Assembly: GCA_046542255.1 (NCBI GenBank)
Contig: JBKHBT010000007.1
Coordinates: forward strand, 4,830 to 68,829
Direction of reading: 5' to 3'
DNA: 64,000 nt
DNA from: Candidatus Zixiibacteriota bacterium
GTDB taxonomy: Bacteria; UBP14; UBA6098; JBKHBT01
The translations under genes and the position numbers were made by a program. This document shows, piece after piece, positions 36,003 to 41,014 of the stretch. The notes under the pieces are model-generated. The model saw nothing but the letters and a program-made list of their open reading frames with translations, was not told the DNA's origin and did not search any database. Every line of letters begins with the position of its first letter. Positions within the stretch are counted from its first letter, which is position 1.

Positions 36003-36187
36003 TTTTCCTCCTTGTGACTCTTATTATCAATCTATCAAAGATATAAGAAGTTTCGAATAAGTAAAGGAAAATTAGAATTTATTTGGTTCGGGCAGTTGCT
36101 TTTCAATTTGCATGGGTAGTGATAGGATCATTTTGGTAGTTTTTGTTGTGGGGTGATGTATTGGTTTGGGGTTTGGGGAGGTTTTTG

Positions 36188-36292
36188 ATGCTTTATTTTC
36201 GAATAAAAAGGGAAAATTTAGAAAATAATCTATTTTTTTTGGAAATTAACCTTGCTGATTTTAGAATTTGCACCTATTTTATTTGCATATGA
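36188..36292 (+). CDS. Candidate small ORF (34 aa, MLYFRIKRENLENNLFFLEINLADFRICTYFICI) in the leader of the island operon
   Basis: Consensus GGAGG sits 6 nt before the ATG. The C-terminus is hydrophobic with two Cys residues. No homology support. Confidence 0.2.
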   Translation: MLYFRIKRENLENNLFFLEINLADFRICTYFICI

Positions 36293-36554
36293 GTTAAGAT
36301 GAAAAAAGAGAAATATAAACAATTGTTCTTATCACTCTAATTTGGCTGTATAAGAACAATGAACATACACAGGCGTTAGAGCGCATTTAAAAATAAGATA
36401 GTGTGGAATGAAGGTTGATAAAGATGAAGGTAATATTTTAGTTTTTATGATGTATAGATTTCTGTCTTTGGGTTCCAATACTTCAAAAATAATTAACGAC
36501 ATTTCAACTAAATTTGACACATAATGGTGTAAGTTAAAATTAGAATTAAATACT

Positions 36555-37136
36555 ATGGATATAATCGCAAAAACTACTTCAAAAAAGATTTTAATCTCAG
36601 GGGTATTTGCATCGGGTAAATCTACACTCGTGAAAAAACTAACTAATAGATTAGTTTTTGAAGGAATCAAAGTTAACACCGTGGGAGAAATACCACGTCG
36701 ATGTCCTTTTGCTCTAAATCAGAATCAGACGACTCTAGCTTCTGCGTGGTTGATTGGCGAGCAAATTAAAGCCGAAGTTGAAGAATCGATTGGTAATTAT
36801 GATTTACTAATTTGTGATCGAGCCATACCAGACATTTTTTCTCATTCAATTGTTTTGAAGAGAGAAGAAAAACAAGCAACACTCTCGACAATAATAAGTC
36901 TTGCAAAAGCATGGAGCAATACTTACGATTTAGTCTTTTGGGCAAAGGCTGACCCTAATTTACCTATTGAGACAGATGGTGTTAGGGTACCTGATAAGAA
37001 GTATCAGTTCTTTTTAGAAAAGAATATTGAAAAGGCCTTTGCTATGATTGGAATTTCTCCAAAACTTTTACCTCAAAAAACTGAAGATAGAATTGAATAT
37101 GTTTGTTCCAAAATATATGAGCTTCTCGATAAGTAG
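36555..37136 (+). CDS. AAA_28 (NadR C-terminal-like) P-loop kinase/ATPase
   Basis: Walker A GVFASGKST, Walker B-like LLICDR, and AAA_28-like C-terminal block YDLVFWAKADPNLPIETDGVRVPDKKYQFF. Confidence 0.55.
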   Translation: MDIIAKTTSKKILISGVFASGKSTLVKKLTNRLVFEGIKVNTVGEIPRRCPFALNQNQTTLASAWLIGEQIKAEVEESIGNYDLLICDRAIPDIFSHSIVLKREEKQATLSTIISLAKAWSNTYDLVFWAKADPNLPIETDGVRVPDKKYQFFLEKNIEKAFAMIGISPKLLPQKTEDRIEYVCSKIYELLDK

Positions 37137-38053: not shown

Positions 38054-40061
38054 ATTAGAAGTATGGATGAAAAGTATTAATCAATTAAATTTGATCATAC
38101 CCAAATTTGGTTATATTCTTGATGAATTTTTCCACCCTTCCCACGGCTTTCAATCAAAACCTGAAGATGGAAAATTTAGCATTATCAGTCATGCTCGTTG
38201 CATTGAGGCAAGCCATGCTTTAACACTCAACAGTGATTTAGATTACGCACAAGAAGATGCACAGAAAATGATTGCCAATCTTTTTTTAAGTCAGCGTTGG
38301 ACGACTGGAGAGTCAGAAAAAATGATCCAATATCCAATTTCTGTTGCGATACCTTCGCTATCTTACATAATTCACCTTGTTGATGATACTGATAAACTGA
38401 CTGAATTAGTATCAAAGAACTTGGGTTCGTTAGTGGAATGGATTGAATATATTGAAACCAAACGACTTTCTGATTCACCCTACGAAAGTGATCCTATGCT
38501 GCATGGGATGTTTTTATACCGTGTGCGTAAGGCATTTGCTGTTCTTGAGAGAGACTGGATTTTTAAGTTAGCTAAGTTTAAAGATAAGAATCCAAACCCT
38601 AAAAAATATTTTGAAGACGTCCTAAGAAAACCAATCAAAACTCTTGACAAGTTTATTAAGGAGAGATTTTATTACTTTATTTCAATGTGTTCGGCAATTC
38701 CAATTAATGAGGAAGATGCTTTACAATTAGCATATTTGGTTTATTCTCTAGAGGAATATTCAACATTTAGAAATGACGTACTGATTGAACATGCATTAGA
38801 GATAGCTTTGACAACCTTATTCAGAAAAGATAGTGTACCAAGACTTCAACTCCTTTACAGGGACAATAAATTAAATATTTCAGGAACACCTATTGAGGTA
38901 TTGACTTTACTTTCCAAAACTCGTTTGGTAAGAAGGCATTTTGACTGCTATTGGAATGCTTTTCATCTTGCATATGAGTGGTTAAAAGCAACACAAAGGG
39001 ATGCAATTTTTAGTGATTCTTCGGTTCCTTGCTGGATGGCTGAACCATGGAGAGGTGTTGGTAAAGCAGAAGCATGGATAAATGCTGCTGTGATCGAATT
39101 TTTTACCTCATATAATGAAATGCTACATGAAGTATGCGCAAACGAAATAAATATTGAGTTTGGGGCTACCACAAGTCAACCCAAATTTCAGTGGAAGCAA
39201 ATAATTGATTTTAAAGAATTCAAAAAAGAGTTAGAAACAGCTTTTTTCCCTTTAATAAAAGAAGATCTTAAAAAAAAAGGAAAATTAAGAAAAGCATCAA
39301 TCATTCTATTTGGACCAGCTGGGACATCAAAAACTTCGATAGCTAAAGCAATTGCATATGAACTTGGAATCCCATTTGTTGAACTTAAACCACATCACTT
39401 TGCTGAAGAAGGAACTGATGGTGTGATTCGCAGAGCAAAAGATGTTTTCAGATCATTATTTGTAATGAGACGCTGTCTAGTTTTTTTTGATGAAATTGAC
39501 GAACTTGTAGCTAGTAGAGATCGGGATGTTGAGCAAGAAAAAATTGGGCGGTTTATTACCACAAGTGTATTACCGTGGTTTCAGGAACTTAGAGATTTAG
39601 CACAGATTGTATTCATAGTGGCGACAAACCATGTGGAAAACTTTGATCCTGCAATAAGAAGACCAGGACGCTTTGACTATGTACTTCCTATTGGTCCTCC
39701 AGATAGAAAAAGTAGAAAAGAACTTTTATTAAAGCTTTTAGAAGCCGATATCCCAGATAAGAACTCACGTGATGAAATTATTAATATCCTTGATACGAAG
39801 GTTAATGAAATTAAGTATGCTGTCAAAATAAAAAATAATGATGACAATGAAAAAATTGAAAAGGTATCATGGGCAGTTACGATTGGAGAACTAGTCAGTA
39901 TATCAGAAAGTATTGTCCGAGATCGTAATATGAATCCAAAGAAGAATGATTCCGCTATCATCGAAAATGTAGTCGGCCGTTTTGCAAAAAAGCCGCTTAT
40001 CCCACCTGAGGATATGGTTAATTTTAATGAACAGATTGAGAAATACAAATATCCATTATAG
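38046..40061 (+). CDS. Classic-clade AAA+ ATPase with ~400 aa alpha-helical N-terminal domain of unknown function
   Basis: Walker A GPAGTSKTS (nt ~39316), Walker B LVFFDEIDEL, second region of homology ATNHVENFDPAIRRPGRFD. The N-terminal 400 aa have no recognised motif. Confidence 0.7.
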   Translation: MNKLEVWMKSINQLNLIIPKFGYILDEFFHPSHGFQSKPEDGKFSIISHARCIEASHALTLNSDLDYAQEDAQKMIANLFLSQRWTTGESEKMIQYPISVAIPSLSYIIHLVDDTDKLTELVSKNLGSLVEWIEYIETKRLSDSPYESDPMLHGMFLYRVRKAFAVLERDWIFKLAKFKDKNPNPKKYFEDVLRKPIKTLDKFIKERFYYFISMCSAIPINEEDALQLAYLVYSLEEYSTFRNDVLIEHALEIALTTLFRKDSVPRLQLLYRDNKLNISGTPIEVLTLLSKTRLVRRHFDCYWNAFHLAYEWLKATQRDAIFSDSSVPCWMAEPWRGVGKAEAWINAAVIEFFTSYNEMLHEVCANEINIEFGATTSQPKFQWKQIIDFKEFKKELETAFFPLIKEDLKKKGKLRKASIILFGPAGTSKTSIAKAIAYELGIPFVELKPHHFAEEGTDGVIRRAKDVFRSLFVMRRCLVFFDEIDELVASRDRDVEQEKIGRFITTSVLPWFQELRDLAQIVFIVATNHVENFDPAIRRPGRFDYVLPIGPPDRKSRKELLLKLLEADIPDKNSRDEIINILDTKVNEIKYAVKIKNNDDNEKIEKVSWAVTIGELVSISESIVRDRNMNPKKNDSAIIENVVGRFAKKPLIPPEDMVNFNEQIEKYKYPL

Positions 40062-40117
40062 GCAAGAATGTCATCCACAGTTATCTTTAATTAAGATTTT
40101 TACATCACAAAGTTCAA

Positions 40118-41014
40118 TTGAATAAATTAATGGATATTGAAAAATTAATAGAGCGAATAGTTGACCTTAAAGAGGATATCTCAGCACTAAAACAAATTGA
40201 GAAAGAAATACTAAAAAAATACAGTTTTGGTAATATTCATTATTCCCTTTTATTTGATGCATTTCTCTCTGATCCTGTAGAATATTTTTCAAGGAAAGTT
40301 GGGTTAGAAAAGAATACATCGCTTCCCAAATTAACTAAAGCTATAAAGAATGATACCAATAAGCAGAGAATTCTGAGCACAAGTATCAGCTCGCAATTGC
40401 GAAACCTCTATGAGGCCTGGGTTTTTGGAGGCATATTGAAAAATCTAGCAAGTTCGATTATTGAACCAAGAGATTTATTCGGCACTTTAAAACTAAATGG
40501 TATTACGTCAAGTAGCAGCGCATCAATTATTGCAGGTATTGAGAGTAAAAATAAATTGGCTATTTTCTTAGATACCCCATTACCGCCAAAAGATTATGTT
40601 AGTGGGGAAAAATATAGATCACGTCCCGATCTAGGTATTTATTTGGTTAAATCGTTTGAAGGTGCACAACGCGATAAGTTTTCACCAACTTCAAATTATT
40701 TACAATTGATCGCTTTAATTGAATGTAAGGAATCAACAGTTTGGCCATGGACAAAAAAGAAAATAATAAATCCTTTAAATCCTATACCTGAAAAGATAGA
40801 AGTAAGCCACCTTGAAATGTTAATGTATTATGAGAAACTATATACACCGCCACTATTTTTTCTTTTATCAAGAGTTCAGACCCCCAAAAAAGCATTGAAT
40901 ACAATAAAAGAAACTAATATTAGATTTTTCGATAGCATAGGATATAATGAGACAGTATTAGAAAAAGTATCAGATGAAATAAGAAGTATTGTGAATAATA
41001 AAAACGCGCTCTAA
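40118..41014 (+). CDS. Hypothetical protein with candidate PD-(D/E)xK nuclease motif
   Basis: RPDLGIYLV (D171) followed ~30 aa later by LIALIECKE (E202-x-K204), each within a hydrophobic beta-strand context. Nuclease assignment is tentative. Confidence 0.35.
   Translation: MNKLMDIEKLIERIVDLKEDISALKQIEKEILKKYSFGNIHYSLLFDAFLSDPVEYFSRKVGLEKNTSLPKLTKAIKNDTNKQRILSTSISSQLRNLYEAWVFGGILKNLASSIIEPRDLFGTLKLNGITSSSSASIIAGIESKNKLAIFLDTPLPPKDYVSGEKYRSRPDLGIYLVKSFEGAQRDKFSPTSNYLQLIALIECKESTVWPWTKKKIINPLNPIPEKIEVSHLEMLMYYEKLYTPPLFFLLSRVQTPKKALNTIKETNIRFFDSIGYNETVLEKVSDEIRSIVNNKNAL

Follow-up and report, generated by a model that had tools for sequence, protein, structure and literature searches.

A 64,000-nt stretch of DNA from a Candidatus Zixiibacteriota bacterium (contig JBKHBT010000007.1, forward strand, positions 4,830 to 68,829; hereafter the window) carries four co-directional genes, g1 to g4, in an insert between housekeeping genes. 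The conserved unit within this group is the trio g1-g2-g3, which encodes a P-loop kinase-like protein, a radical S-adenosylmethionine (SAM) enzyme and an AAA+ ATPase with a predicted toroidal N-terminal domain; g4, the gene of a predicted nuclease, is an add-on. Most likely, the trio is a nucleotide-centred mobile defence module directed against phages or other mobile elements, a reading that we put forward tentatively, with slightly less than even confidence. The module itself is real, well delimited and very rare, and brings together three families without functional annotation and one generic kinase. Comparison between loci gives a consistent picture that, to judge from sequences and gene neighbourhoods, suggests nucleotide chemistry at work in a conflict. 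A nucleotide-centred antiviral role had been advanced in a prediction made earlier on this DNA (hereafter the original prediction), and it gains support here, the trio being found in mobile and defence contexts and the partners of g3 being mostly enzymes of nucleotide type.

Distribution and neighbourhoods of the trio

The genes g1, g2 and g3 are found in the same order, and usually with the same 8-nt overlap between the radical SAM and AAA+ genes, at seven independent loci. These are the window, L001/L014 (Phycisphaerales), L013 (Planctomycetales), L004, L005, L006/L007 and the P0002 contig; two Planctomycetota metagenome-assembled genomes (MAGs) have the trio. The four-gene operon that the original prediction had taken as the unit gives way to the trio; g4 elsewhere pairs with related radical SAM enzymes without an AAA+ protein. 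On the P0002 contig (JGI 3300075153, genes at 308-4688), the trio is followed by a convergent gene for a Maf nucleotide pyrophosphatase, a class of enzymes acting on modified nucleotides; this adjacency may be coincidental.

The g3 family is sparse at every scale. A word-indexed search gave 12 full-length homologues, the N-terminal domain had 29 matches among 1.84 billion representatives (nearly all of them proteins of 620-710 aa), and full-length g3 was present in 2 of 185,579 species genomes. No match to the N-terminal domain was obtained in viral contigs or, by tblastn, in the plasmid collection; the viral contig scan with g2 gave one weak match.

Several trio loci lie close to genes of mobile elements or of defence systems. 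A serine recombinase with DUF2924 is near the trio at L001, a phage-type integrase and two transposases at L005, and ThiF-like genes, a relaxase-like gene and a DEDDh exonuclease at L004. At L006 (4604-16331), the trio is surrounded by matches to defence models, namely a caspase-fused helicase matching Hachiman HamB (3e-31), two cyclases matching Pycsar PycC (5e-172 and 8e-82, one of them with a cyclic-nucleotide-monophosphate-binding domain) and an E2 match of CBASS type (8e-53). Low GC content at third codon positions (GC3), patchy spread, the MazEF pair of the window (see below) and these neighbours support the view that the module is accessory and mobile, like those of defence islands. With only about a dozen loci in existence, this support is suggestive and has no statistical weight.

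In the wider set of loci, the toroid-AAA+ protein is the constant element and its swappable partners belong for the most part to nucleotide or nucleobase chemistry. At L003, it is accompanied by a PfkB kinase, another radical SAM enzyme, a protein with a nucleoside-deoxyribosyltransferase-like domain and a TIR response regulator. L009/L010 carry a protein of dCMP/cytidine-deaminase fold, an AIRS (PurM-like) protein and a B12-radical SAM enzyme; L058 has the last two, with no deaminase open reading frame (ORF) found upstream. At L055, the partners are a dCTP-deaminase-like protein, a protein of no assigned family and an AIRS protein, and at L008 a different radical SAM enzyme and a HEAT-repeat protein. 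At L060, where a g1 homologue is also found, an IstB-like fragment lies upstream, and the N-terminal part of a downstream HD-domain gene is apparently duplicated upstream of the module, a hint that the latter was inserted within this gene or beside it.

A more distant branch of toroid-AAA+ proteins (L015-L047, for example L024:8284-11898 and L020:7606-10789) comes mostly from Acidobacteriota MAGs and has at least the second half of the toroid in common with the g3 family (hhalign 95.9%). In 26 loci of this branch, a conserved partner gene lies upstream, the long forms of which include a MazG domain; in eight, an HhH-GPD glycosylase-like gene follows downstream. Searched against PADLOC, this branch gave nothing beyond generic IetA/TRIP13 ATPase matches.

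Predicted properties of the four proteins

The domain assignments of the original prediction hold for all four proteins. The cysteine pattern that it had noted in g2 and the PD-ExK motif in g4 are both present and are invariant in the homologues.

g1 matches AAA_28 of Pfam above threshold (4.3e-9) and, over its full length, the PHROG family phrog_2107, “thymidylate kinase” (9e-15); in PADLOC, VakA is matched at only 1e-3, and no close relative was found among solved structures. Homologues that are 38-57% identical are encoded directly upstream of g2/g3 homologues at L001, L004, L005, L006, L013 and L060, and the family keeps an invariant Walker A motif, GK[ST], and an invariant C-D-R motif. 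g1 is a P-loop kinase-like protein of the nucleoside/nucleotide-kinase class.

g2 has a clear Radical_SAM domain (PF04055, 80.8 bits vs. a cut-off of 29.5, E 1.6e-22). Pfam and NCBIfam recognise the generic radical SAM core only, and the NCBIfam equivalogs (MoaA, TIGR04053, AhbD, NirJ, PqqE, and others) all remain far below their cut-offs, the best being archaeal MoaA with 73 vs. 325 bits. A word-indexed search found one relative and the family was rebuilt from the loci that were read, yielding an alignment of nine sequences made up of g2, six orthologues and two distant relatives from L011 and L012. The radical SAM motif C44-x3-C48-x2-C51 is invariant in all nine, as are five further cysteines, C26, C27, C252, C258, and C276, even in the distant enzymes. 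These form an N-terminal CC pair (C26-C27) and a C-terminal motif, C252-x5-C258-P-x16-C276 (Cx5Cx17C), and imply a predicted auxiliary iron-sulfur (Fe-S) cluster. Compared with proteins in the PDB, the family profile places MoaA (1.4e-17), GDGT-MAS (9e-16), BlsE (1.2e-15), and PqqE (1.7e-14), and also CteB, well ahead of the viperins, which score from 1e-7 to 6e-4 (viperin-like 1.2e-7, viperin 3e-6). Because of this ranking, g2 is assigned to the twitch/SPASM branch of MoaA, BlsE and PqqE and not to the viperins.

The viperin analogy drawn in the original prediction therefore fails as a statement of membership. As a candidate prokaryotic viperin, g2 reaches 54.1 bits with NF038283 (residues 35-184), far from the cut-off of 180, its pVip matches in PADLOC are partial (covering 36-185), and it is nearer to MoaA and carries the five extra invariant cysteines. 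Viperins produce 3'-deoxy-3',4'-didehydro-NTPs and have a single [4Fe-4S] site together with a C-terminal extension of their own type.

The SPASM/twitch enzymes PqqE, CteB, and SkfB, which mature peptides, have matches of 1e-14 to 1e-12 to the g2 profile, and this bears on another role, that of a locus for ribosomally synthesized and post-translationally modified peptides (RiPPs). There, g2 would cross-link or otherwise modify a short precursor, g3 would serve as chaperone or unfoldase, g1 would be an accessory ATPase, and a 38-aa ORF at 36408-36524 could be cited in favor of this role. However, this ORF has no cysteine, and comparison of the window with the other trio loci revealed no conserved small ORF (all E > 0.02). 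Moreover, the Pfam and NCBIfam searches did not indicate an RRE/PqqD-like domain in g2, no protease or exporter is found nearby among the window ORFs, and most partner cassettes of g3 consist of nucleotide enzymes. The RiPP-like alternative of the original prediction thus finds no support; it is already weakly refuted, and we regard it as very improbable.

g3 is predicted with a confidence (predicted local distance difference test, pLDDT) of 86. Its residues 1-400 are modeled as a twelve-helix double barrel of the (alpha/alpha)6 type (AGE / six-hairpin / terpenoid-cyclase-like), which in structure comes closest to sugar epimerases and isomerases. No Pfam model recognises the domain in ten family members, and its sequence belongs to none of the described toroid families. 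The model makes it a new, sugar-enzyme-like (alpha/alpha)6-toroid domain. About 18 polar residues are invariant or nearly so, including the invariant H49, Y96, H153, D244, E342, and the motif W330-x-E-P-W-R-G. Most of them map to predicted helix N-termini, the usual site of the pocket in such barrels, and they suggest a ligand-binding or catalytic toroid. As a separate observation, twelve distinct stretches of a 1674-aa protein, P0074, match the g3 segment 318-349 that contains the W-x-E-P-W-R-G region, which suggests that this hairpin motif may also exist elsewhere as a tandem repeat.

The C-terminal half of g3 has an AAA domain at residues 419-549 (PF00004, 86.8 bits vs. 21.2, E 2.2e-24), with VAT, Afg2, and p97 as PDB matches (up to 1e-46). 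Walker A (G423/K429/T430), Walker B (D482/E483), sensor-1 (N528) and the arginine fingers (R539/R542) are invariant or nearly so. In contrast, the position of pore loop 1, where VAT has Y-Y in D1 and W-V in D2, is occupied by G456-T457, with G456 invariant in the family. The missing aromatic residue argues against a canonical threading unfoldase, and the sensor/effector pair of ATPase and nuclease imagined in the original prediction is accordingly not the obvious reading.

With such a toroid, the trio may also be viewed as a small cassette for a nucleoside- or sugar-type secondary metabolite or cofactor, possibly used in competition. The kinase would activate a precursor, the BlsE/MoaA-like radical SAM enzyme would rearrange it, the toroid would act as an epimerase-, isomerase- or cyclase-like enzyme, and the AAA+ module would oligomerise or regulate. 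The structural matches of the toroid fit this scheme, as do its two invariant histidines (H49, H153), reminiscent of AGE-family enzymes, and the presence among the top g2 relatives of BlsE, which belongs to a peptidyl-nucleoside antibiotic pathway. The deoxyribosyltransferase-like protein, PfkB kinase, cytidine-deaminase-fold protein and B12-radical SAM enzyme of the variant loci are likewise of types that occur in nucleoside-antibiotic pathways. However, the clusters comprise two to four genes only, and no glycosyltransferase, aminotransferase, ligase, transporter or resistance gene is found in the loci read. The fusion of an enzyme to a fully competent classic AAA+ ring would be unusual in biosynthesis, and the surroundings are integrases, transposases and defence genes, not biosynthetic clusters. 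We consider such a cassette unlikely, though well ahead of the RiPP-like locus.

g4 has no match in Pfam, NCBIfam, PADLOC, PHROGs or the PDB sequences, nor in the viral contig scan or, by tblastn, in the plasmid collection, and only five homologues were found in 5.8 billion clusters. All six family members share E99, D171, and E202-x-K204, so that the catalytic D...(D/E)xK arrangement is complete. The structure prediction is of middling quality (pLDDT 76, one good model in five) and the Foldseek search against the PDB gave no significant match. With moderate confidence in the fold, g4 is predicted to be a PD-(D/E)xK nuclease. From the type II restriction endonucleases Cfr10I, Bse634I, SgrAI, PspGI, and BsoBI, it differs by having no detectable sequence similarity, no adjacent methyltransferase, and radical SAM enzymes as neighbours. 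Indeed, no methyltransferase domain was detected among the six genes scanned (36555-41794), and the non-coding stretches of the insert (36003-42100) contain no other long ORF.

Among the g3 loci, g4 stands beside g3 in the window only. In contrast, all three g4-family genes with readable contigs (window, L011, L012) adjoin a g2-type radical SAM gene, and at L011 and L012 the g4-family gene directly follows a g2-related enzyme having the same cysteine pattern, without g3. Thus, two modules with a g2-type enzyme in common seem to meet in the window. The genes at L011 (121-3360) and L012 (2-2510) make up a separate candidate module devoid of AAA+ protein, which consists of a protein of about 270 aa that has a membrane anchor at its N-terminus (in L012, a frameshift splits the gene), the g2-related radical SAM enzyme and the g4-family protein. 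At L011 only, an RNase_T/DEDDh exonuclease is part of the module and AbiEii is nearby.

The linkage of g4 to g2-type enzymes is what one would look for in a modification-restriction system. In such a system, g1 and g2 would modify host DNA, host RNA or the nucleotide pool, g4 would cut unmodified incoming nucleic acid, and g3 would be an accessory motor or regulator. The intact D...ExK motif and the predicted type II endonuclease fold are in line with it, but a methyltransferase is lacking nearby; the combination of a P-loop kinase and a radical SAM enzyme is known from phage pathways of thymidine hypermodification. Six trio loci are, however, without any nuclease, and we judge this explanation to be distinctly unlikely, more so than the metabolite cassette.

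Proposed function and comparison with known systems

The computation shows gene order and coupling, modelled folds, motifs, conservation of the trio, exchange of partner enzymes and the genomic contexts; the functional steps that follow are inferred. In the defence reading that we favor, g1 would phosphorylate a nucleoside or nucleotide, and g2 would convert the product into a modified nucleotide by radical chemistry assisted by its auxiliary Fe-S cluster, as in MoaA, which acts on GTP, and BlsE, which acts on a cytosine nucleoside. The presence of these nucleotide- and nucleoside-acting twitch enzymes among the nearest solved relatives of g2 counts for such a nucleotide model. The pocket of the g3 toroid would bind the g2 product or a related sugar-phosphate ligand, and the ATPase ring would serve as an oligomeric switch, regulator or scaffold rather than as a threading unfoldase. 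The ring may thereby couple the chemistry to the state of infection, as RdrA does for RdrB in RADAR. Finally, g4 would be an added nuclease effector or restriction arm, the activity of which would be tied to the g2-type enzyme.

RADAR, which pairs an AAA+ ATPase (RdrA) with a nucleotide deaminase, the adenosine deaminase RdrB (PMC9994260), offers a parallel for the ATPase. In both cases, a large ring-forming AAA+ protein with extra domains is genetically coupled to a nucleotide-altering enzyme in a compact mobile module of two to three genes, and some loci of the g3 family do pair the ATPase with a deaminase. However, no RdrA or RdrB match was found in PADLOC at E <= 0.1 and the block in the window has no deaminase. 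g3 is a classic-clade AAA+ protein with an (alpha/alpha)6 toroid partnered by a kinase and a radical SAM enzyme, and the deaminases of the variant loci have cytidine/dCTP-deaminase folds, not that of RdrB.

For the two enzymes, the parallel is with prokaryotic viperins; about 12% of the bacterial ones have an associated kinase, a linkage that is documented (bioRxiv 10.1101/2023.09.13.557418). As in pVip/VakA, a radical SAM gene lies beside a P-loop nucleotide-kinase-like gene and the proposed output is a modified nucleotide. The g2 profile nevertheless prefers MoaA, BlsE and PqqE to viperins by about ten orders of magnitude, the extra cysteines imply a cluster that viperins lack, and viperin systems are without an AAA+ partner. 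With MoaA and BlsE, its best solved relatives, g2 shares the radical SAM core and a C-terminal cysteine motif for an auxiliary Fe-S cluster. It is distinguished from them by its low equivalog score, by the Cx5Cx17C spacing and the N-terminal CC pair, and no moaC, moaB or blasticidin gene is found among the ORFs around the block.

IetA of IetAS is the best PADLOC match for the AAA+ module of g3 (3e-20), and both are classic-type AAA+ proteins in defence contexts. The match covers the ATPase core only (NF042959, 65 vs. 510 bits), IetA is devoid of a toroid, and the block has no IetS-like protease. In Kongming, a base-modified nucleotide is used as an immune signal (bioRxiv 10.1101/2024.12.20.629578). 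The likeness is one of concept, a kinase and a nucleotide-modifying enzyme yielding a non-canonical nucleotide that controls an effector. The differences are that in the present module the kinase is encoded by the host, that the modifying enzyme is a radical SAM enzyme and that the candidate receptor/effector is an AAA+ protein rather than one of SIR2 type, with no component shown to be shared.

Several observations weigh against the defence reading. No component of g1-g4 reaches the threshold of any defence-system model in PADLOC or NCBIfam, and L006 is the sole trio locus among several genes of known defence models, in a set of about a dozen loci in all. The substrates of radical SAM enzymes are not readable from sequence, and the second-best solved relative of g2, GDGT-MAS, acts on lipids, while PqqE, CteB and SkfB act on peptides. 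Classic-clade AAA+ proteins mostly remodel proteins, and it may be that the toroid of g3 is an enzyme in its own right, at work in a biosynthetic pathway. At L060 (79-4787), the radical SAM enzyme is missing and translational coupling joins a g1-like kinase to a g3-like AAA+ protein, and the neighbours at L008 are not obviously nucleotide enzymes. Lastly, g4 is missing from all other g3 loci, and its role in the module is therefore uncertain.

Beyond the trio, toroid-AAA+ proteins may form a new superfamily of immune “hubs”, in which a sugar-enzyme-like pocket would read or finish a nucleotide made by interchangeable cassettes and the ring would convert the signal into defence. The cassettes would be kinase and radical SAM enzyme, deaminase and AIRS, or MazG and glycosylase. 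We hold this generalization to be doubtful. For the window, it would mean a nucleotide messenger or poison made by a radical SAM enzyme, of a chemical type new to immunity, plus a nuclease tied to the radical SAM chemistry, which is improbable to a similar degree; nor do we think it likely that a toroid-AAA+ hub with a radical SAM product is categorically new.

The original prediction had recognised no described system in this combination, and this stands. PADLOC, NCBIfam and Pfam gave generic matches only, and the literature searched contained no description of this combination of genes. Should the module serve in defence, antiviral nucleotide chemistry would gain a second radical SAM lineage, of twitch type, with an auxiliary cluster and unrelated to viperin. 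In addition, the fusion of an (alpha/alpha)6 toroid with an AAA+ ring would be a new architecture, one that stays the same while the nucleotide-modifying enzymes beside it are exchanged. Each of the natural cassette swaps predicts a different small molecule, and the pattern could bring to light new nucleotide analogues of practical use, for example as chain terminators or as signals. If the module has no part in defence, three unannotated protein families still gain a fold, conserved residues and a genomic context.

The insert and its surroundings

The features of the locus are listed in Table 1. The region is probably a horizontally acquired insert of about 6 kb between housekeeping genes and includes the MazEF pair; it is flanked by AsnRS, RecO, and AhcY on one side and by a nitroreductase and SufD/SufC on the other.

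Table 1. Position of the module genes and of neighbouring features in the window.
Feature	Position	Strand	Description
ahcY	34740-36002	-	gene flanking the module
ahcY/g1 divergent intergenic region	36003-36554 (552 nt)		AT-rich, about 30% GC; presumed promoter region
g1	36555-37136	+	P-loop kinase-like protein (AAA_28), 193 aa
g2	37154-38053	+	radical SAM enzyme of the twitch/SPASM branch, 299 aa
g3	38046-40061	+	toroid-AAA+ ATPase, 671 aa
g3 N-terminal domain (residues 1-400)	38046-39245	+	predicted (alpha/alpha)6 toroid
g3 C-terminal half	39246-40061	+	classic-clade AAA+ module and C-terminal helical/hairpin extension
g4	40118-41014	+	predicted PD-(D/E)xK restriction-endonuclease-fold protein, 298 aa, TTG start
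Short GC-rich hairpin	41004-41019		spans the g4 stop codon; possible terminator (minus-strand scan)
MazF/PemK-like toxin	41262-41576	-	PemK_toxin match; within the low-GC insert
Putative antitoxin	41576-41794	-	72-aa ORF overlapping the toxin start by 1 nt

The GC content of 36003-42100 is 33.2%, vs. 38.8% in the rest of the window, and is the lowest of all 6.1-kb stretches in the 64 kb. Among 42 long ORFs of the window, within which all these comparisons were made, g1-g4 have the lowest GC3 (0.244-0.258); the toxin-antitoxin pair has a GC content of 0.33-0.35. The original prediction was right that composition bears a sign of horizontal acquisition, but the contrast is smaller than the 30-35% vs. 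45-50% GC that it gave, ahcY alone reaching 46%. Its gene spacings (17 nt between g1 and g2, an 8-nt overlap of g2 and g3, 56 nt between g3 and g4) agree exactly with the ORF list, and so does the approximately 550-bp gap after ahcY. Because ahcY lies on the minus strand, this gap is a divergent intergenic region and not a demonstrated untranslated leader as had been proposed. The deposited model of g4 is 294 aa long, so the ATG at 40130 may be its true start.

The MazF toxin-antitoxin pair announced downstream of the block is indeed there. The toxin matches PF02452 with 46.1 bits (cut-off 23.1, E 6.2e-12) and is preceded by a small overlapping ORF, as in MazEF; for the 72-aa putative antitoxin, the domain scan returned no family match.

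The position of the insert between the gene of S-adenosylhomocysteine (SAH) hydrolase and the SufD/SufC genes of Fe-S assembly has a loose thematic link to radical SAM chemistry, as would suit a housekeeping pathway connected with ahcY or suf, for example of cofactor synthesis or tRNA modification. However, ahcY and suf are absent from the surroundings of the other trio loci, the g3 family is extremely rare, the GC3 is the lowest in the window, and no equivalog model is reached. By rarity and context, a housekeeping role is largely refuted, and among the explanations discussed here it seems to us the least probable.

Searches for non-coding elements gave little. An Rfam scan of 34000-43000 (E <= 1) had no match, so that neither a SAH/SAM riboswitch nor another RNA was found in the 552-nt gap. 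The whole window has no tRNA gene, and direct or inverted repeats at the borders of the insert are short and at chance level. Promoter and terminator scans did not exceed the expectation from shuffled sequences, with weak sigma-70-like sites. A 14-nt inverted repeat (I23; 36375-36388 and 41002-41015, 13/14 complementary) brackets g1-g4, its second arm lying within the hairpin at the g4 stop codon; it is not significant, about as many such pairs being expected by chance in 7.5 kb. In the ahcY/g1 gap, a G/T-rich tract at 36135-36190 has several runs of three to four G and a local GC skew of about 0.37, and could form a candidate G-quadruplex on the plus strand.

Two further features of the window lie away from the insert. 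A second low-GC block (12740-19142; GC 0.31-0.38, GC3 0.29-0.34) contains glycan-biosynthesis genes, with enzymes of the GT2, NAD-dependent epimerase/dehydratase, polysaccharide deacetylase, PMT_2, and GT4 types. At 33141-33935, a lipoprotein-like ORF has a long poly-Q run and C-terminal tandem PQG(A/G)AP repeats, and is mirrored by a long spurious ORF on the antisense strand.

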